Shown: positions 1,731 to 17,747 of the stretch, one piece after another
Layout: each line of letters opens with the position of its first letter
How positions within the stretch are numbered: position 1 is the first letter of the stretch
NCBI GenBank assembly: GCA_051294375.1
Contig: JBJCIZ010001459.1
Coordinates: 1 to 18,550, forward strand
Source of the DNA: Paraspadella gotoi
Taxonomy: Eukaryota; Animalia; Chaetognatha
Length of the DNA: 18,550 nucleotides
Reading direction: 5' to 3'
Notes under the pieces: model-generated
Told to the model about the DNA's origin: nothing
The model's database searches: none
What the model saw: only the letters and a program-made list of their open reading frames with translations
Program-made: the position numbers and the translations under genes

Positions 1731-4700
1731 AAAAAAAAACAATCGTTTGTTGAACAAAATATCAAAACTCTTTTCATTAATAAATAACTATAATTAATTT
1801 AAATACAAATGCTTCACTCATCACTCCATCAATACAACCATTATTTGTCCAGACTGACCCTTCCTCACTTGCAACGGCCTCCTTCAGCTGCTTCACTTCC
1901 TCCTGCAGCGCCCTGAGAATCTCTGCGCTGCTTTCCCTGCGTTTGAGGCTGCCGCGCTCTTTGCGCGCTTTCCCTGCGCGCTGGTTCGTGGGCGCTCTTC
2001 GGTCCGCGGCGCGTCGTCGTTTCTTGCTGGAATCGATTCCGTCGCGGTTCGGAGTCACGGCCGGGCGTCGTTGTGTCGTTTCCGTCGATTAGCCCGTGTT
2101 GTTGTTGTTTGTGTAATAGCGTCGCGTTCAGGTTTTAATTATTTCGACGTTGTTGTTGTTGAGATTCTCTCGTTGTTGTTGTTGTCTGTTTGTTCTTCCG
2201 ACGGGCGTCATCGAGACGCCTCGATTGTCCGACTTCCCTCGAACCACGAATCCGCTGTCTCGTCTCTCCTCGCTGAAGGCCGCGGGAGGAACGCCGAAGA
2301 GGCGACGACGGCGGCGGCGGCAGCGGCGCGGCGACGATGGAGACAATTTCCGAATCGGCGGAGAGCGGCGACAAGCGGCCGTCGTTTCCGGGCGAAAAAG
2401 CGCGTCGCCGGAGAGGCGCCGTTCCCAGGCGCGCCGCGACTCGGTTTAGATGGACGGCGTCTGTCGCGTCCTCGGCGCCGTCGTAATTAGTTTCGCGCGG
2501 TCGAATGGCGGCGCCACTCGTTCGGTGAAGATGCGCGCGATTCGAGGGAATCGAAAATCGAGGGTCGAGGGGCGAGGTTGGAGTTGTGGGGGGGAAGTGG
2601 GAGGTTATAAACGGGAAGGGGGGTAAGGGTAACGGAGAGGGGGGAACAGTGGGTAGGGAGTTAGGATTAAGAGATAGGAGGAGAGGAGAGGAGGAGGAGG
2701 AGAAAGTCATTGGAAAATTATTTATTTTTTCAGGTTTTAAATGTTTAATTTGAGTTTGGTAAATTAATCCATTGAGTTACATTGTATATACATATTTTTC
2801 GTTGTTAAAAGGCAGGTCAACAACAATAAACAATAACAAACAACATCAATCACAATTAATAACAAACCAACACAACACAGCAACAATACAACTATCAATG
2901 ACAATAACAACAAACAACAAAACACCAACGAAAAAACAACCAAGATTACTTAAAGTCGCTTACTGTGCATTATCTCTCTTTCCTCTCCACCATCCACTTC
3001 TTCCTCGTCCCCTTTCCTCTCCTCCTCTCCTTCCTCCGTCTTCCCTCCTCCTCTCCAGCTCGTTCTTCAGGACTGAATCCCTCGGTTTCGCCCTCCAGTT
3101 CGTTCGTCGACGTCGCGCCGCGGCGCGATGGATCTAAAAGGCTGCTGCTGGGGTCCCTGGCAGGGTGTGATGCGCGGCGGCGCGCTGACCTTGATGCCAG
3201 CAATACGGTTGTAGCTGTCGTGCTGCTGTTGCTGTTGTTGGCCAGTACAGTTGTGCATTGATGATACTGGGCGCGGCTTGCGGCCAGCGGCGTGTCGCGG
3301 ACAACGGACGAGGGGGAGGCGAGGATGTCGGTCAGCGTGATGAGCTCTCGACGTCGATCCGTCCTCATCGGCGTCGTCGTCGTCGGCTGCGGCGGATACG
3401 GCGCTGCGGGCGTCGAGGGCTTCTGCCGGCGCCGGGTACGTGCCAGCGTGGCGTGGGCGAGGCGAAAGTCAGTTGTATAGATGATTTGGATCGAGTTTTG
3501 GCGAAATCCGACAGGGGATTTTCTGGCGCTAGGGGCTTTTTTGGCTGGTAAGGGTTGGAAAGGGAAAATGTGAGGTAGTTAAAAAATACTTTAAGTCAGT
3601 TGTTCTCTTATAAAACATTATTCATTTATTAAGTAAATCCTCTTCTTTTGAACAATTAGTGTTTTTACGACATTTAAAAATCGAAAGGATTCCATAGTCA
3701 ACGGGCGCAAAACATTTAAAACAGAACGAGTTTACCCAAATTTCAACCCAAGGTTGAATCATCACTGAGTCCCCAAGTTGGAATTCCACAAATGCAAATC
3801 GGGAATGAGTCGGAAACAGTTTTTTCAAAAAGTGACCAATTTTCAGCCTTAAATTTAGAGATTACTAAAACATTTTTTTAATTATGAAGATTAGGTGAGG
3901 GGGATAAGGGATAAGGTTAGTTTTAAGGATTAAGGTCAAGTTAAAAATATATTTTCTGTTAAAGATAGTCCAACGATTATGAACAGAAATGAGCGGCTTT
4001 CGGAAACAAAGTGCCCAGTTCTAAGTCGCGTTGAACAAGAACGATCAGAGGGAGAAAGACTAGGAAAGAGGAAGAGAAGAAGGAAGAGAAGACAGTAGGA
4101 AGAGGAAAAAGACTTTTGCGTGTTCTTCGTCTTGAAAAATGATGACGAAGAACTTTCCTCGACATCGTCAACATTGAATCGGTTTATTTCGGATTTCATG
4201 GCGTCGAGGGATTTGGTGGCGGAGATGAGAAACATTTATCAACTTTTCTTAAATTTTCTTTTTTTTTTCTTTGGCTCTTTTCTTATTGGGTTTTTATAAT
4301 TTTCTCCTTTCAATTTACAACTTTCTAGACTCTCTGTCTTAGATTATTATTCCCTTCCACCTTTCTCTCTCTCTTCCTCTTCAGTCTTTCTTCTCCCTTC
4401 TCCTTACCTCCCCCCTCCCTTCTTCCACTTCCCTCCTCCCACCCACCACTCACCTTCCTCCCCTCTCTTTTCCCTTCTTCCTTCGTCCTGGTGGTCGCCG
4501 CTGGTTGGAATCCTCGTACCGCCGACAGACCTCCCTCCTCCTTCCTCTTCCTCCCTTCCGCCCGAGATCTTCCGTCCGCACGACTCCGAGAACGCGTTGG
4601 CGGCGTTCCTGTGGGCGTCGTCCTCTATTTCGGGAGTCAGAGTTTGTATCGCGCCCATCGAAGTCGGCGCCGTGAAGTTCGAGGAGCTTGGCGAGGAGGT

Positions 4701-5465: not shown

Positions 5466-6117
5466 TGCGGCCATTTGAACGAACGATTTCCATTGCAAAA
5501 ATTATTCATCCACACCGGAATGGAACCCGGGACTCAAGGCTGGGGACACCAGAAGATGACGCTCCTGGCCAACAGGCGGCCACATATTTGGATCTCAAGA
5601 TGTTCTATATTAAAACTTTAACTCATCACTGAAACCTTTTGTTTACCAAATAATTCAACTTAATCTACAAAAGATGTCTCCTGGTTGTAAATCATTTGTT
5701 CCCTGATTGTTACTTTTATCTTGATTGCTGACTTAATATTCTGCCTGTTTTTAACTCTTGATGAGAAGACTCTTTTTAAATACATTAATTCTTATCACAA
5801 AAGACTGATAATATTTGTTTTACTTCATCATCAAATGTAATTAATACATTAGTCAAAGATGAAAAACATCAATTGAATCAAAGAATTTATTAATTCAAAC
5901 AAATCAATTAAATCGATAAACAAAGTCAATGGAATCTCATGAGACTAATCTCAATATTAATGTGGATCAAATTAATAATTGGTATCTCGTGCACCCTTTC
6001 CCTGCAACGTCTTTAATCTCAGAGACTTATCTCATGGTGCAACGTCTTAGCAACGTGTCACTGAAGTTGTCACGCCCTCCGTCACGCTGTGGCCCAACTC
6101 CGATGGCGAGCCACACA
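5466..6117 (+). repeat. 5' LTR of the Gypsy element (~652 bp)
   Basis: Begins TGCGGCC and ends GCCACACA immediately before the TGG of the PBS. Boundaries are defined by end-to-end alignment with the reverse complement of 17072-17747. Confidence 0.88.
5557..5614 (+). promoter_or_regulatory. Putative LTR U3 promoter (TGACG element and TATA-like box)
   Basis: TGACG at 5557 and TATATTAAA at 5606-5614. The inverted copy reads TGACGT (17656-17661, minus strand) and TATATAAA (17603-17610, minus strand) at the homologous positions. Confidence 0.4.
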
Positions 6118-6130
6118 TGGTGAGACCGAC
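6118..6130 (+). other. Primer-binding site (probably tRNA-Trp type)
   Basis: TGGTGAGACCGAC directly follows the LTR. TGG complements the tRNA CCA end, and the rest resembles the TGGTGACCCCGAC tRNA-Trp PBS used by CsRn1-type elements. tRNA identity is not verified. Confidence 0.75.
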
Positions 6131-6297
6131 ATCGAACTTACCCAACGTTCAAGTGGAAAATTCAGTGGATCCCTACCTTTTCCAAGGTGAGATTGGGTGG
6201 GGGATTGGGAAATTAAGTGAGTTGCCATCCAATCTTCTCACACCTTCCCTCTCTTCTTTTTCCACTCCATGTCATTCCGACGGAGTACAAGGCATCG

Positions 6298-7398
6298 ATG
6301 AGCGGCTCCAATCTCCGCTCGCGTCTCCGCTCCGCCCAACGCGACGCCGAGGCCGAAGATCAACACAACGAAGCGATTAGACTACAAGTCCCTTTCGGAT
6401 TCGGCAGGGGGCGGCGCTCCCGGTCCATCTCACCGGCGTCAATCGACACTGCACCTGCATTCAATTTCCAATCCAACGGCAGCCAGGATTTTGAGGACGC
6501 CGACATGGCGACCGACCGACAGACCACCGGAGCCGCCACCAGGGACCTCAGAGATGAAAATGATGAACTCCGTGCTGCTCTTGCCACTGCAACGCGCGCT
6601 CTCGAAAGAGTTTCCAACAGGAAACCAGAATTGCCGGATTTCGACTCCAGCAATATCGAAATTTGGATAAAGCGCGTCGAAGCCGCGTACTCGAGAGCGG
6701 GAATCGTCAATCCAAAGAACAAGTTTGCACACTTAGAATCTAAAATCGGAATAAACGTCGATCCCACGATTAACCAGTACCTTTACGGCGAAACAACTGA
6801 AGCAACATGGAGCCAGTTCATCGGATACCTGCGTAAGGAGTACGGCCTTACCAGGCGGCAACAGGCCGCCAATCTGCTGGACGCCCTCGACGTTGACGGC
6901 GCAAAGCCGTCAAAGATGCTTGCGCAACTCGAGGAAAAGACTAAAACTCTTACTCTTGATGACGTACGGAAAGAGAAAATCCTCCGGGAACTCCCCAACG
7001 AGATTCGCCGCCAACTGGAGGACAAAGCAGACGACGTAAGTGCCAGCGAGCTTTGTCAATTGGCGGACCGTCATTACGACAATGAAGGCAATCTAAAGAT
7101 TCGCCAATCGTCCTCACTGGTTAGCAACATTGACCAGAAACGCCGTGAGCAATACGATTCGGACTCGGACGACGACGACACCGTCAATGCAGTCAACACT
7201 CGCTACCGCAAGCCGTTCAATAGCAAGCGACGACACCAGCCAGTCTCAAAGGGAAAAAGCAAGCCCAAATTGACGACACTGTGCGCCAAACATGTCAAGT
7301 TCGGCGATGAGGCATGGTCCTGCGACCTGGGCTGTGCAAGATATGAGGAAACGCAAAAGAAAAAGGAGGGAAACTCCAAAGGGGGACGCCGCAGGTGA
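6298..7398 (+). CDS. gag: Gag polyprotein (~366 aa from the first in-frame ATG)
   Basis: Contains ELPDFDSSNIEIWIKRVEAAY...KFAHL, resembling the LPxF...W..xVE motif of invertebrate Gypsy Gag. C-terminal C-X2-H-X9-C-X3-C knuckle (CAKHVKFGDEAWSCDLGC, 7282-7335). Lies between the PBS and pol. The ORF track start at 6217 is a non-ATG codon. Confidence 0.9.
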   Translation: MSGSNLRSRLRSAQRDAEAEDQHNEAIRLQVPFGFGRGRRSRSISPASIDTAPAFNFQSNGSQDFEDADMATDRQTTGAATRDLRDENDELRAALATATRALERVSNRKPELPDFDSSNIEIWIKRVEAAYSRAGIVNPKNKFAHLESKIGINVDPTINQYLYGETTEATWSQFIGYLRKEYGLTRRQQAANLLDALDVDGAKPSKMLAQLEEKTKTLTLDDVRKEKILRELPNEIRRQLEDKADDVSASELCQLADRHYDNEGNLKIRQSSSLVSNIDQKRREQYDSDSDDDDTVNAVNTRYRKPFNSKRRHQPVSKGKSKPKLTTLCAKHVKFGDEAWSCDLGCARYEETQKKKEGNSKGGRRR

Positions 7399-7429
7399 AC
7401 GCCGTCCCCCAGGAGCCAACTCACTCACC
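7368..7429 (+). promoter_or_regulatory. Programmed -1 ribosomal frameshift signal (slippery site plus stem/pseudoknot)
   Basis: G GGA AAC (7368-7374) is in the gag frame. A 6-nt spacer is followed by a perfect 8-bp stem GGGGGACG (7381-7388)/CGTCCCCC (7403-7410). Loop GGTGA can pair with TCACC (7425-7429). pol is in the -1 frame and open from the slip site. Confidence 0.85.
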
Positions 7430-10400
7430 GGCATCCAATGATCTGCTATTCATACGCGACGCTGGAGACAAAACAAAGTGGCTTGTAGATGGCGGAGCGC
7501 TACTATCCATTGTTCCCCCAACTTCACAACAACGAAGCCAAGGACCTGATCCATCCATGAAGCTTCAAGCAGCAAATGGATCCCCAATCGCTTGCTATGG
7601 GACAATGGATAGAGTGGTACAACTAGGAGACAGGAAATTCAATTACCAATTCGTCGTCGCCGACGTCAGACAAAATATCCTCGGCGCCGATTTCTTAGCC
7701 GAAAATTTCCTGGCTCCAAATCATCGAGACGGTCTTCTGTTAGATCTGAGAGATTACTCGACCATTGCCGCTTCAATGGCTACAGAAACATCCGCCCATG
7801 TAAACTTTGTCGACCGAAAAGGCGAGAAGTACTACAAGCTACTTGAATCATTCCCTTCACTCTCCACGCCTACTTTTGAACTCAAGGCACCCAAGCATGG
7901 CGTCACCCATTCTATCCCAACAGAAGGACGCCCATGCCAATCACGGGCGCGACGCCTTGATCCGGAAAAATTGGCTGTGGCAAAGCGCGAACTGGAAAAA
8001 ATGGTTTCTCTTGGAGTCGCGAAAAGAGGCAAATCAGAGTGGTCGTCGCCACTCCATGTAGTCGCCAAACCTGACGGCGGATGGCGCTGTTGTGGCGACT
8101 ACAGGCGCCTGAATGCTCAAACCATAGAGGACCGGTATCCGGTGAAATTACTCACAGATTTCAATTCGCAACTTGAAGGTAAAACTATCTTCTCCAAAAT
8201 TGACCTTCTGAAAGGTTATCACCAGATCCCAGTGGATCCAAAAGACGTTCAGAAGACGGCGGTAATAACACCTTTCGGATTATATGTTTTCCCACGCTGC
8301 CCGTTTGGTTTGAAGAACGCAGGACAAGATTTCCAGCGTCTAATGGACGAAATCTTGGGGGATATTCCCCACACGTTCGTTTATCTGGATGACATACTCG
8401 TGGCATCATCGTCTCCAGATGAACACATGCAAGATCTTGAGAGAGTTTTCAAGGCATTGGATGAAAACGGATTGGTAGTGAATACCAAAAAATGCCTACT
8501 CGGACAAGATTCTCTTGAGTTTCTGGGTTTCTTAGTGGATAAGAACGGCGTCCGCCCATTGCCAGAAAGAGTGCAAACGCTCAAAGAAACAACTCGACCC
8601 ACGTCCATCAAAGAGCTACAACGCTTTTTGGGTATGATCAACTACTACCGTAGGTTCATACCTGGAGTAGCTCATCGATGTGCCCCTCTTTACGAAGCAC
8701 TTAGTGGAAAACCCAAAGCGTTAGAATGGACAGACGACTGTGAAAAAGCATTCGAGGCGATAAAAGAAGGCCTCATCTCAGCAGCACTACTGCACCATCC
8801 ACGCACAGGAGCCCAGCTCTGTGTAACAACAGACGCTTCCGATAACGCCGTAGGCGCCGTTCTGGAACAACGGGGCCCTAAAGGATGGGAACCGCTGGCT
8901 TTTTTTTCAGCCAAATTAGCCAAAAACCAGAAACTCTGGCCCCCGTTTGACAAGGAACTCTACGGCGCTTTCCGAGCTGTGCGGCATTTCCGCCATTGGG
9001 TAGAGGGTCGCGCATTCACCCTCTACACAGATCACCAAAGCCTGGTCTCGGCAATCCGCAAGAAGGCGGAGCCTCAAACGGTCAGACAGTCGTATCAGCT
9101 ATCAGTAATAGCCGAGTTTACTACAGACGTGCGCTATCTCAAAGGCAAGGCGAATGTAGTCGCTGATGCCTTATCGCGTCCCAACACTTCGTCAGCGCCA
9201 TCAATAGGAACTAACGACACTGAAAACGAGGCTAAGACCAACTCGACAGCTGCAGCAACTCCTGCAGCAACATCAGCCGCAGAAGGAGAGCAACAAGCTG
9301 AAGAAAAACAGAGGCAAAGCATCAAACCGAATCGCCTGGAAGACGTCAACGCCGTCATCTCATCTCTAACCAATTTCGAAATTGATTTCGAACAGATGGC
9401 GCGTGAGCAGACGCTTGACGCCGACTTCCAGAAAATCGCAGAAGACGCCAGATCTGGACTCAACTTCAGAAAGATACGCGTAGGCGACCAGGAGCTGCTG
9501 GCCGACGTTTCAAATGGCCCGGCAAGACCATTTGTACCAGCATCCTGGCGGCGAAAAATCTTTGATGTAATCCACGGACTAGGTCATCCAGGAATCGACG
9601 CGACAAGAAAGGCGGTAGCGGCAAAGTTCGTTTGGACAAACATGCGTCAGGACGTCAGCAACTGGGCGCGAGATTGTGTAGATTGCCAAAGGGCAAAAAT
9701 TACAAGACACGTAGTACCGGAGATTGGGGAATTCAAAATTCCGCCACGCCGTTTTCAGCATATAAATCTCGATCTCGTCAAGATGCCGAAATCAAACGGT
9801 TTTTCTCACCTGCTTACCATCGTTGATCGTTTTTCAAGATGGCCTACAGCGATCCCGATACACGATACTCTCACGCCTACAATCCTTGACGCCCTCAGTC
9901 TCAACTGGATTAGCACATTCGGTACGCCAGCGGTAATAACCACAGACAGAGGAAGTCAGTTTAACTCGACTTTGTGGCGCCAGTTGATGAAGCATTGGGG
10001 CATCAAGCACCAGATGACAACGGCGTATCATCCACAAGCTAATGGCCTCGTCGAAAGGTTCCATCGAAGATTAAAAGAATCACTCATGGCATTAGTTAAG
10101 GGGGAACGAGAGAGATGGTTTTGGAAATTACCATTAACTCTCTTGGCAATTCGAACTACAGTAAAGGAAGATGTTGGAGCATCAGCAGCAGACCTGGTCT
10201 TCGGCGAAGGTTTGAGCGTACCTGGCAGCCTACTTGGCGACGCCCAAGTTGACAACAACTCATTAAACCAGCAACGTCGATCACAACTTTCGAAATTGAG
10301 AATCGAAGTCGCTCGACTCCAACCGACGCCTACTTCAGCTCATCAGCAGCCAACAATACATCTCCCAGCGAATCTAGATTCTGCCCAGTACGTATTTGTC

Positions 10401-10727
10401 CGACGAGCAACTGTACAACCTCCTCTAGTGCCTCCATACGAGGGACCCTACCGTGTAATAAATCGTAATGGATTAAACATGACAATCGAAATACCAAGTA
10501 CGGGACGCGAGACCGTAAACATAGCCAGAGTCAAGCCAGCTTGGGTGAGTAACGAGGAACTGGATGTCGAGGAACTTGAACCACGCCCGAAGAAAGCGCC
10601 TGGCCGTCGACCAGGCCTCAGAACAAGGCAAACGGAAAGTGAGGAATGGAATCGCGAATCGAAATGTAAGCCGAGGATAAACGCGAGAATGTCGGTGGAA
10701 TGTCAATATGGAGAATCTTGCAGTTAA
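7395..10727 (+). CDS. pol: Pol polyprotein: aspartic protease, reverse transcriptase, RNase H, integrase (expressed as Gag-Pol by frameshift at ~7374)
   Basis: PR: WLVDGGA and ILGADFL. RT: WRCCGDYRRLN, PFGLKNAG and YLDD (8382-8393). RNase H: TDAS, DKEL, TDH, ADALSR. Integrase: HHCC (HGLGH...CVDC), D,D35E core (NLDLV, TDRGSQF, GLVERF) and GPY motif (YEGPY). The last ~30 codons may be non-element read-through. Confidence 0.97.
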   Translation: MNAVPQEPTHSPASNDLLFIRDAGDKTKWLVDGGALLSIVPPTSQQRSQGPDPSMKLQAANGSPIACYGTMDRVVQLGDRKFNYQFVVADVRQNILGADFLAENFLAPNHRDGLLLDLRDYSTIAASMATETSAHVNFVDRKGEKYYKLLESFPSLSTPTFELKAPKHGVTHSIPTEGRPCQSRARRLDPEKLAVAKRELEKMVSLGVAKRGKSEWSSPLHVVAKPDGGWRCCGDYRRLNAQTIEDRYPVKLLTDFNSQLEGKTIFSKIDLLKGYHQIPVDPKDVQKTAVITPFGLYVFPRCPFGLKNAGQDFQRLMDEILGDIPHTFVYLDDILVASSSPDEHMQDLERVFKALDENGLVVNTKKCLLGQDSLEFLGFLVDKNGVRPLPERVQTLKETTRPTSIKELQRFLGMINYYRRFIPGVAHRCAPLYEALSGKPKALEWTDDCEKAFEAIKEGLISAALLHHPRTGAQLCVTTDASDNAVGAVLEQRGPKGWEPLAFFSAKLAKNQKLWPPFDKELYGAFRAVRHFRHWVEGRAFTLYTDHQSLVSAIRKKAEPQTVRQSYQLSVIAEFTTDVRYLKGKANVVADALSRPNTSSAPSIGTNDTENEAKTNSTAAATPAATSAAEGEQQAEEKQRQSIKPNRLEDVNAVISSLTNFEIDFEQMAREQTLDADFQKIAEDARSGLNFRKIRVGDQELLADVSNGPARPFVPASWRRKIFDVIHGLGHPGIDATRKAVAAKFVWTNMRQDVSNWARDCVDCQRAKITRHVVPEIGEFKIPPRRFQHINLDLVKMPKSNGFSHLLTIVDRFSRWPTAIPIHDTLTPTILDALSLNWISTFGTPAVITTDRGSQFNSTLWRQLMKHWGIKHQMTTAYHPQANGLVERFHRRLKESLMALVKGERERWFWKLPLTLLAIRTTVKEDVGASAADLVFGEGLSVPGSLLGDAQVDNNSLNQQRRSQLSKLRIEVARLQPTPTSAHQQPTIHLPANLDSAQYVFVRRATVQPPLVPPYEGPYRVINRNGLNMTIEIPSTGRETVNIARVKPAWVSNEELDVEELEPRPKKAPGRRPGLRTRQTESEEWNRESKCKPRINARMSVECQYGESCS

Positions 10728-11182
10728 GTTAAGCGCGAAAAATGGAGGATTTCGGAGCAAAAAAAAAAAGTTATGTTCCGAAAAAACAAAAACAAAAAAA
10801 TAATTTCTTCGTCGCTTTGCGCTTTCAACTCCCAGACTTTCCTCAATCCCACCCAGTTGTCCCTTTTCCATGTTTTTTCCCTTTTCCTTCCATTTCATTT
10901 TCACTTCTTCCTTTCTCCTTCCATTTTTCTTTTGTTTTAGTACTTCTTTTCTCTTAAAATATTTTTGAGTTTTCATTAATTGACGACAGAAATAACGCAA
11001 GAAAAAAAAGAATTTGAGCGGTAACTACGCCTTGTTAAAAAAATATCTTACTATATTGTTTTGGTTCTTCATCGATAGCTTATAAGATTATTTAATTTAA
11101 TATTTAATATTTAATTTAACAACAACACGAACTCTCAATAAAGAAAAAATACATTGGATCGATGGGCGGTATATTCAAACCG

Positions 11183-11213
11183 CCACGTCACATCGTCAGC
11201 CAATCCATTGGCT
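11183..11213 (+). promoter_or_regulatory. Putative U3 promoter elements of the miniature LTR (CACGTCA and inverted CCAAT pair)
   Basis: CCACGTCA at 11183-11190, then AGCCAAT-CC-ATTGGCT at 11198-11213. Similar sequence is present in the second LTR. Both lie upstream of the ribozyme. Confidence 0.4.
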
Positions 11214-11276
11214 CAGAGGGAAACACCATCCAGGGCGTAGTGTTCCATGTCCACAGTCCAACGACTTTCCCTCTGC

Positions 11277-11356
11277 GTTGCAAAGCGAGGACTCCTAGGT
11301 AACCGCGCCAGTGACTGGAGGCGTGCACTGAGGGTCGGAAGCCCCTAAAAGCCAAC
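11277..11356 (+). ncRNA. Twister ribozyme candidate, type-P5 permutation (copy 1)
   Basis: P4 AGGG/CCCT encloses loop TCGGAAGC (twister-type UNNNAAGC loop). TAA-CCGC-GC gives the U^A cleavage site (11300/11301), P2 and the T2 GC. P3 is CAGTG/CACTG and P5 is GTTG(G)C/GCCAAC. The T1 partner is partly eroded in this copy. Confidence 0.65.
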
Positions 11357-11413
11357 AGTGAAGATGCCCCCATTCCCAATGGCGCATCAAGGCAACCGGC
11401 TGTTGCCATAAGT

Positions 11414-11422
11414 TGGTGAGCC
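11414..11422 (+). other. Primer-binding site of the miniature element
   Basis: TGGTGAGCC lies 3 nt after the 5' LTR. It shares TGGTGAG and a downstream ATCGAA with the Gypsy PBS region at 6118-6137. Confidence 0.7.
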
Positions 11423-11444
11423 TCTATCGAAACGCAACCTTCTA

Positions 11445-11541
11445 GGTACGCTACGACAAACGCTATGCCCTGCGACTTCGGGTACGCTGACGACAAACGC
11501 CTGATGCCCTGGGGTACGCTACGCAAAAGCGGCCTGTGCCC
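11445..11541 (+). repeat. Three tandem ~30-36-nt units inside the miniature element
   Basis: Units start GGTACGCT at 11445, 11481 and 11513 and continue ACG(A)CAAA..GC..TGCCC. Confidence 0.85.
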
Positions 11542-11634
11542 ACAACTCGCACCTCTCTCTCTCTCCCATATGTAACAGTTTGTCGACACCTCTCAGGCTG
11601 AGGATACCTGAGTGATGTCTTGGCCCGGGGATCC

Positions 11635-11890
11635 TGTGGCGTTATTATTCAGAACCGCGCCTCACGTCCACCATCCGTCAGCCAAATCCATTGGCTCAGA
11701 GGGGGAACACACCATCCCAGGCGTGTGTTTTCATCCACAGTCTAACGACTTCCTCTGCTTGGCAAAAGCGAGACCGTCCTAGTGGTTAACCGCGCCAGGA
11801 CTGGAGGCGTCACTGAGGTCGGAAGCCCTAAAGCCAACGTGAGATGCCCCATCCCAATGGGCATCACAGGGCAACCGGGCTTTTGCCATA
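11635..11890 (+). repeat. 3' LTR of the miniature element
   Basis: Starts TGTGGCG after GGGGATCC and ends TTGCCATA. Direct repeat of 11163-11410. Confidence 0.88.
11759..11838 (+). ncRNA. Twister ribozyme candidate, type-P5 permutation (copy 2)
   Basis: In order: TTGGC (P5), AAAA, GCG (P2'), AGA-CCG (conserved GA plus T1 strand pairing loop CGG), CC-TAGT-GG (P1), T^AA (11787/11788), CCGC, GC, CAG-GAC/GTCACTG (P3), AGG-TCGGAAGC-CCT (P4), AAA, GCCAA (P5'). Confidence 0.7.
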
Positions 11891-11921
11891 ATACCAACTA
11901 ATGTTTCTTTCTTTCTTTCAG

Positions 11922-17071: not shown

Positions 17072-17747
17072 TGTGTGGCTGCCATTCGGAGCTTGGGCCA
17101 CGGTGACGGAGGGCGGACAACTTCATGACACGTTGCTAAGACGTTGCACGATGAGATAAGTCTCTGAGATAAGACGTTGCAGGGAAAGGGTGGCACGAGT
17201 ACAGATTATTATTTGATCCACATTAATATGATATTAGTCTCATGGATTCCATTGACTGTTGTTTATCGATTTAATTGATTTGTTTCGAATTAATAATTCT
17301 TTGATTCAATTGTGTTTTTATCTTTGACTAATGTATTAATTACATTTTGAGCTTGTGCATATCAAGTTAGTAACAAAACCAATGAAAACTCATCATTTTG
17401 CAATGTCTATAGGTAGTGATAAGATTTAACTATTGTTCTTAAAAGAGTCGTTCTTGTCATCAAGAGTTAAAACAGGCAGATATTAAGCAGCAAATCAGAT
17501 AAAAGTTAAACAGATCAGGGAACAAATGATTACACCAGGAGACATCTTTATGTAGATTAAGTGAGATTTTTGGAAACAAAGGTTTCATGTGATGAGTTAA
17601 AGTTTATATAGAACATTCTTGAATCCAAATATGTGGCCGTGGCTGGTTGGCCAGGACGTCAGTCTTTGGTGTCCCAGGCTTGAGTCCGGTTCCATTCCGG
17701 TGTGGTAATAATTTTGCAATTGGAAATCGGTCGTTCAAATGGCCGCA
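17072..17747 (-). repeat. Inverted copy of the Gypsy LTR (solo or displaced 3' LTR, ~676 bp)
   Basis: Its reverse complement aligns end to end with 5466-6117. There is no PBS at its 3' end, and AGGGGCA precedes its 5' end on the minus strand. Confidence 0.9.

Follow-up and report, generated by a model that had tools for sequence, protein, structure and literature searches.

Within an 18,550-nt stretch of Paraspadella gotoi DNA, hereafter the window, a short non-coding repeat pair raises the question of whether an animal genome carries an LTR retrozyme, and one cut by a twister-type motif. Our preferred reading, to which we assign a probability of about 0.6, is that the locus holds one copy of a non-coding mini LTR element working as an animal LTR retrozyme, cut by twister ribozymes, circularised, and copied by a CsRn1-clade Gypsy element. 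All features lie on the forward strand unless stated otherwise.

A repeat search within the window recovered direct repeats at 11156-11411 and 11629-11891, with 79.5% identity (E 8e-43). The whole element measures 728 nt (11163-11890) between LTR termini TG... and ...GCCATA, and the limits first claimed for it coincide with these termini. Its 5' LTR (LTR1, 11163-11410, 248 nt as assembled) has termini in agreement with loose ends of public contigs placed at the 3' LTR (LTR2, 11635-11890, 256 nt as assembled), which is itself defined by the repeat pair, the termini and the contigs. Between them lies a contig-covered non-coding interior of 224 nt (11411-11634). It opens with a putative primer-binding site (PBS) of tRNA-Trp, CsRn1-like type, TGGTGAGCC, at 11414-11424, 3 nt past LTR1, and closes with a weak G tract, GGGGA (11627-11631), 3 nt ahead of LTR2, as putative PPT. 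The interior also contains a 32-nt tandem repeat of 1.9 copies (11480-11541), and contigs show an interior variant 85 nt shorter that skips from 11520 to 11606. Folding predicts a 6-bp hairpin at the 3' end of LTR1 (11391-11407). The longest ATG frame of the element is 73 aa and a 134-aa stop-to-stop frame is without a Pfam hit, so that we find no credible ORF in the element. The architecture of the original prediction, LTR-PBS-short interior-G tract-LTR without coding capacity, therefore stands, and the element has the layout of a plant-type LTR retrozyme: non-coding, with two LTRs, a PBS and a PPT, the last being short. Its GC content is 56%, as against 26-29% in the flanks. The 4-bp target-site duplication is not clean, since ATAC abuts the end of LTR2 (11891-11894, the possible right copy) and the left-hand ATAC (11149-11152) sits 10 nt upstream of LTR1.

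Contigs from four public DNA runs, belonging to one study with at most two samples and one organism, were compared with 11135-11895. Matching contigs numbered 2042, 2254, 1937 and 3165 in the four runs, a depth that does not equate to copy number. Loose ends pointed towards the LTR start in 95-113 contigs and towards the LTR end in 53-67, and their majority lines run on into AT-rich sequence, with ATAT beside both LTR termini. The left loose ends have a median length of 16-18 nt and the LTR start is 23 nt away, which means that the flanks are reached by some of these ends only. Contigs as long as 1666 nt match an LTR segment and nothing else; none in the four runs spans the entire element. If the sequenced organism belongs to the same species or is closely related to it, the element is a member of a dispersed, high-copy family, and the varied flanks among some 2000-3000 contigs in each run contradict a unique local duplication. 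The same contigs bear on the reading that the repeat pair is such an immobile duplication, or that its twister likeness arose by chance, which we hold to be very improbable for this and for further reasons given below.

Aligned with each other, the two LTRs show 9 mismatches and 33 gap events, and the other repeat pair of the window shows 39 mismatches against 70 gap events. Among the 12 of 193 indel entries that were listed, an extra base at 11325 is absent from 96-99% of contig depth in all four runs; less clear are 11783 (absent in 43-86%) and 11786 (absent in 14-76%). Because gaps outnumber mismatches and several window indels are missing from most contig depth, the differences between the LTRs, mostly indels, are likely assembly noise, and the LTRs more alike than they appear. 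The stretch is probably poorly polished long-read sequence, single-base indels being the main difference between repeat pairs throughout the window; such noise would be patchy, since the neighbouring 3.4-kb pol frame is intact. The copy at 11163-11890 may have lost its activity, private decay being possible, or its faults may be those of the assembly only.

Each LTR contains a twister-like motif in type-P5 order, and the pairings were judged on these two copies. In LTR2 (motif 2, 11759-11837, predicted cut 11787/11788) the core can be followed helix by helix: P5 (11759-63/11833-37, 5/5 pairs), P2 (11768-71/11790-93, 3/4 pairs), the conserved G-A (11772-73), T1 (11774-76/11820-22, 3/3 pairs), UAA (11787-89), T2 (11794-95/11825-26, 2/2 pairs), P3 (11796-11815, 3+3 pairs) and P4 (11816-18/11827-29, 3/3 pairs), together with a U-NNN-AAGC loop. 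A 7-bp hairpin is predicted downstream of it (11843-11865). In LTR1 (motif 1, 11277-11356, predicted cut 11300/11301), P2 (3/4), T2 (2/2), P3 (5+2) and P4 (4/4) are intact, and UAA, G-A, the GC/GC of T2 and loop 4 are kept, the G-A in a shifted register. As assembled, the 3' strand of L1 and T1 is damaged there, leaving T1 with 2/3 pairs in a shifted register, and the P5 5' strand is one base shorter than in LTR2. Contigs do hold a GA-CCG strand at the damaged place (at a loose end that precedes 11298, in 40 contigs of one run). UAA starts at 11300 and 11787, at the same offset and on the same strand, and the loop-4 octamer is identical. The claim that both LTRs share one twister-like fold thus stands for position, strand and the full core of LTR2, and in part only for LTR1 with its incomplete, shifted T1.

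The strand order matches that of the type-P5 twister (RF02684), namely P2-3', G-A, T1', P1, UAA, P2-5', GC and P4, and the U-NNN-AAGC loop and the A at the end of P2 beside the conserved G are likewise shared. The pairings in LTR2, and the descriptor match reported below, uphold this assignment of strand order. T1 is CGG/CCG in LTR2 where the Rfam consensus has CCC/GGG, two pairs being altered on both sides, and a contig variant at 11791 leaves the P2 pair there intact as U-G. At the first position of P2, LTR2 and the contig majority line have C.A; an A opposite this position is also present in the Rfam P5 consensus. The same C.A occurs in one of the nine loci with twister hits that pattern scans with the canonical T1 returned (9 of 16 loci, 6 P5 and 3 P1), a set used for comparison only. 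That locus (L029, 149-209, reverse strand), from a Planctomycetota MAG, is a natural type-P5-like twister with a P3 insertion, scoring 30.6 bits, below the gathering score.

We then described the motif strictly, with the conserved letters fixed and pairing demanded; this descriptor was written after the sequence had been seen, and its spacings were fitted to it. It matched once in the window, in LTR2 (11768-11829), and in none of 5000 shuffles of the element or 200 of the window, relaxed versions matching 2 and 7 of 5000; these figures are optimistic because the spacings were chosen post hoc and the descriptor was applied only to the window, the element and their shuffles. Covariance models did not follow suit. 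The Rfam listing, which reports only the best overlapping match per clan, contained no twister across the whole window at E ≤ 1 and none on LTR2 alone at E ≤ 10, and no Twister-P5 (RF02684) match appeared in any run. Twister-P1 (RF03160) matched 11296-11364 at 19.9 bits (E 0.19), with a gathering score of 67.2, so that on this check, proposed with the original prediction, nothing reached the gathering threshold. Probably the P5 model misses the motif because of the features that set it apart from RF02684: in place of the 8-bp P1 hairpin it has a 7-8-nt palindromic segment, a 7-bp P3 has been added, and T1 is swapped to CGG/CCG. Minimum free energy folding of the two ribozyme stretches was no better than that of shuffles (z +0.63 and +0.30).

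A chance resemblance would account for the non-significant covariance match and for a descriptor fitted post hoc, and a motif-only pattern did match 20 unrelated metagenome loci. Against it, six helices and the conserved loops stand in the correct order, the strict descriptor matched none of the 5000 shuffles of the element, and the PBS, the A box described below and the LTR termini are in register. Pattern scans with the CGG/CCG T1 returned one viral and 20 metagenome loci, of which 20 were compared part by part and one (L006) was left out as its match lay at the locus edge; relatives of the element were not found in these viral and metagenome contigs. The CGG/CCG loci were considered as relatives and set aside as chance matches: only one of the 20 (L002) has three P2 pairs, none shows BLAST similarity, and Rfam finds nothing in them.

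The low Rfam scores, well under threshold, would also suit a fossil, left behind when a SINE or the 5' end of a non-LTR element brought a ribozyme into a TRIM LTR; the motif would since have lost its activity and been carried along as a passenger. Kojima's proposal that Helenus heads came from SINE insertion into a TRIM LTR (PMC10886601) offers a route for this, and RTE elements have twisters at their 5' end, the one genomic role for twister met in the accessible literature (PMC8501958; PMC7761336). We judge this reading improbable. UAA, G-A, GC/GC, loop 4 and the doubly changed T1 are all intact in LTR2 and, where contigs cover them, in the family, and RTE-linked twisters are tabulated as type P1 and not in P5 order (PMC8501958). 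The Perere-3/RTE variants (Liu et al. 2021, PMC8501958) do resemble the present motif as twisters of animal retrotransposition in which a weak P1 is tolerated; they are single type-P1 ribozymes at the 5' end of autonomous non-LTR elements, whereas here two permuted twister-type motifs lie in LTRs.

P1 is the least conventional part of the motif. A 6-nt palindrome, CCTAGG (11294-11299), stands in LTR1 where the P1 hairpin is expected. As RNA, CCUAGG has a computed self-duplex energy of -8.0 kcal/mol and forms no monomer hairpin, so the LTR1 palindrome pairs between molecules only; in LTR2 as assembled P1 has 2/3 pairs. P1 may be formed by a strand swap between two copies through the CCUAGG palindrome, giving a dimer, and we put the odds of this somewhat below even. 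Otherwise, P1 would be a 2-bp stem closing a 4-nt loop within one copy; a minimal P1 suffices for twisters (PMC8501958). A literature search, in which subscription papers were poorly covered, found no natural dimeric twister.

Upstream of the motif, each LTR has a Pol III A-box-like sequence, TGGCTCAGAGG, at 11209-11219 in LTR1 and 11692-11702 in LTR2; these are the only matches to TRGCNNARNGG on the forward strand of the window. Compared with the Helenus A box, TRGCY..YGG, the TRGCY part agrees in both LTRs and the Y before GG does not. The B-box-like motif is weak in both LTRs and only 31-32 nt on from the A box; in LTR1 (11240-11252) it reads TGTTC rather than GGTTC, and its distance from the start of the A box is a short 31 nt. 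The canonical GTTCRANNC has no match, and ARAGORN finds no tRNA. The original prediction had overlooked this putative promoter, whose A box ties the element to Helenus TRIMs.

Helenus TRIMs (TRIMp3; Kojima 2024, PMC10886601) are short TRIMs with an A box in the LTR and a PBS of a kind common with Gypsy elements; they also have a PPT, and our 728 nt falls within their size range of about 0.3-1.3 kb. They have a tRNA-like B box with GGTTC, whereas this element has a weak, close B box and then the twister-type motif. It thus fits Helenus in part only, the A box being present and the B box doubtful; Pol III transcription of Helenus is itself described there as unvalidated. The nearest counterparts that we saw in the accessible supplement are the gall-wasp Helenus-2_SyJa and Helenus-2_SyUm, with a tRNA-Trp PBS, an LTR start of TGTGG, and A and B boxes. 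By eye only, we noted in both Helenus-2 LTRs an apparent type III hammerhead after the B box, its loops complementary to each other over about 12 bases. In the accessible text of PMC10886601 the word 'ribozyme' occurs only in a reference and 'twister' not at all, with no ribozyme mentioned in Helenus. Six twister-type 9-10-mers matched the accessible supplement twice, both times in interior hairpins near the PPT, a search that other Helenus ribozymes could escape.

This kinship gives shape to a rival in which the element is a Helenus-like TRIM mobilised by linear LTR strand transfer. The twister would then be real and either slow or at work in the 3' LTR only, as a 3'-end former replacing a T run, and no circle would arise as intermediate. 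On the Helenus model (PMC10886601), Pol III would begin close to the A box and continue as far as the end of the LTR, leaving a long R region, and because of it no ribozyme would be needed. With its stunted P1 and its C.A pair, the motif could also be slow to cut. Wasp Helenus LTRs in the supplement mostly have a T run right after the B box, and this LTR lacks one; the absence of a T4 terminator between 11196 and 11727 nevertheless carries no significance, as 1008 of 2000 shuffles have one. Two further points argue the other way. Being copied from one template, both LTRs would be cut alike, and a double cut deletes R; moreover, plant elements of the same layout form circles (PMC4918200). We therefore regard linear transfer as unlikely, yet as a stronger contender than the fossil. 

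The preferred reading, a twister-cut retrozyme, also calls for a helper, and a candidate lineage adjoins the element. A CsRn1-clade Gypsy, not part of it, lies directly upstream at 5466-10727, with a 5' LTR of about 650 nt (about 5466-6115), a PBS, TGGTGAG, at 6118, a gag frame (6217-7398) and, overlapping it, a pol frame (7347-10727) with RT, RNase H and integrase. Its LTR recurs 11 kb further on as a second, solo copy in inverted orientation (about 17074-17747, reverse strand), and no 3' LTR of this Gypsy was found in the window. LTR1 was considered for that role and rejected, the Gypsy 5' LTR being unrelated to it in sequence. CsRn1 hallmarks, including the PBS 5'-TGGTGAG/CCCCGT/A-3', have been described (PMC2582038; PMC3630058), and the neighbour shows them in its motifs, with a CX2HX9CX3C (CHCC) Gag motif, GPY in the integrase and the tRNA-Trp PBS. 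The original proposal of a CsRn1-type helper lineage thereby gains a concrete candidate. Among the best 120 Pol relatives the only named protein is from a cestode, and Gag relatives in Atlas are Gag-like clusters mostly without taxa; none of 29 frames compared with Pfam gave a hit.

What the two elements share is confined to their ends. The Gypsy LTR reads TGCGGC...GCCACA and the element's TGTGGC...GCCATA, the LTRs being otherwise unrelated; the PBS regions align weakly, a similarity equalled by 8 of 1000 shuffles, and no long sequence is shared. Because it is without a 3' LTR, the adjacent copy probably marks a lineage and is not itself the working helper, and its adjacency to the element may be chance.

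Under the retrozyme reading we infer transcription, cutting, ligation and trans-mobilisation as likely steps. With good probability, transcription by Pol III would begin a short way ahead of the A box in LTR1 and run through both LTRs; we are slightly more confident still that intact family copies would self-cleave at U^A in each LTR. The predicted cuts are 487 nt apart. The doubly cut unit, free of terminal repeats, would likely be closed into a circle by a host ligase, by analogy with hammerhead retrozymes, for which RtcB ligation forms part of the published model (PMC4918200; PMC7229834). A tRNA-Trp would prime the CsRn1 reverse transcriptase at the PBS, and going round the circle would restore both LTRs. 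From the ends that the two elements have in common, TG(T)GGC...GCCA(C/T)A, the helper integrase would then recognise the copy and insert it at ATAT-like sites. Published retrozyme circles are highly self-paired (PMC4918200; PMC7229834). The predicted 487-nt circle folds at -152.7 kcal/mol with 59% of its bases paired, and 28 of 100 shuffles do as well, an ordinary stability that speaks for linear transfer.

Plant LTR retrozymes (PMC4918200; PMC7761336; PMC5680766) share with the element the non-coding LTR-PBS-interior-PPT-LTR layout, a small self-cleaving motif per LTR and Gypsy dependence (both predicted here), and a GC content above 55%. They measure 1-1.5 kb with a unit of 600-800 nt, whereas this element has 728 nt and a predicted unit of 487 nt. 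They carry type III hammerheads and a tRNA-Met PBS; here we find a twister-type motif, a tRNA-Trp-type PBS and a Pol III A box, in an animal. The hammerhead core CTGANGA...GAAA is absent from both LTRs, and lacking it the element is no member of the plant type. Metazoan non-LTR retrozymes (PMC7229834; bioRxiv 10.64898/2026.07.22.740005) are alike in being animal and in having ribozyme pairs that excise a unit RNA (predicted here). Their ribozymes are dimeric and their RNAs circularised by RtcB, both of which are only proposed for our element; they differ in that their hammerheads are of type I and sit in tandem repeats, linked to Penelope-like elements, that have no LTR, PBS or PPT. Elsewhere in the window, 1605-1784 forms a long AT-rich hairpin (fold z -6.2 for 1660-1740), at whose top CTGATGA at 1684, followed by GAAA about 25 nt on, makes a hammerhead-like core. 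Rfam gives no hammerhead in that stretch, only sub-threshold matches, mostly to microRNA hairpins; the hairpin is possibly a Penelope-type remnant.

LTR retrozymes are described as mainly plant elements with type III hammerheads, and animal retrozymes as non-LTR hammerhead repeats (PMC7761336; PMC7229834); a 2026 preprint, in its accessible part, still assigns LTR retrozymes primarily to plants (bioRxiv 10.64898/2026.07.22.740005). Our search, again with poor coverage of subscription papers, found no twister-based and no animal LTR retrozyme, in agreement with the original prediction that no such twister family had been described. The element is likely an animal LTR retrozyme with a twister-type motif. 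The same prediction had called this class convergent, a view that is not established: because the Helenus-2 LTRs seem, by eye, to share this layout and to hold a hammerhead in it, an exchange of ribozymes inside a single lineage is as plausible as convergence. More speculatively, and with considerable doubt, we envisage a hitherto unrecognised class of Pol III-headed animal LTR retrozymes that would parasitise CsRn1-clade Gypsy elements and could exchange their ribozyme, a type III hammerhead serving in Helenus-2 and a twister here. The twisters of the two LTRs would form a strand-swapped dimer through a palindromic P1, delaying the cut until the unit is fully transcribed. If so, the element would provide the first dimeric twister known from nature and add a new source of circular RNA in animals.

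If the Helenus-2 hammerhead is real, the literature already contains an animal LTR retrozyme that went unnoticed, and the Paraspadella element is its twister counterpart. If the retrozyme reading is true, more hidden ribozymes would be predicted in published TRIM libraries, as Helenus-2 appears to show, twister would gain a second defined job, and the family would offer a small, abundant system for testing circles as true intermediates. It would also mean that the circle-based route of LTR retrotransposition is independent of ribozyme class and of plants.
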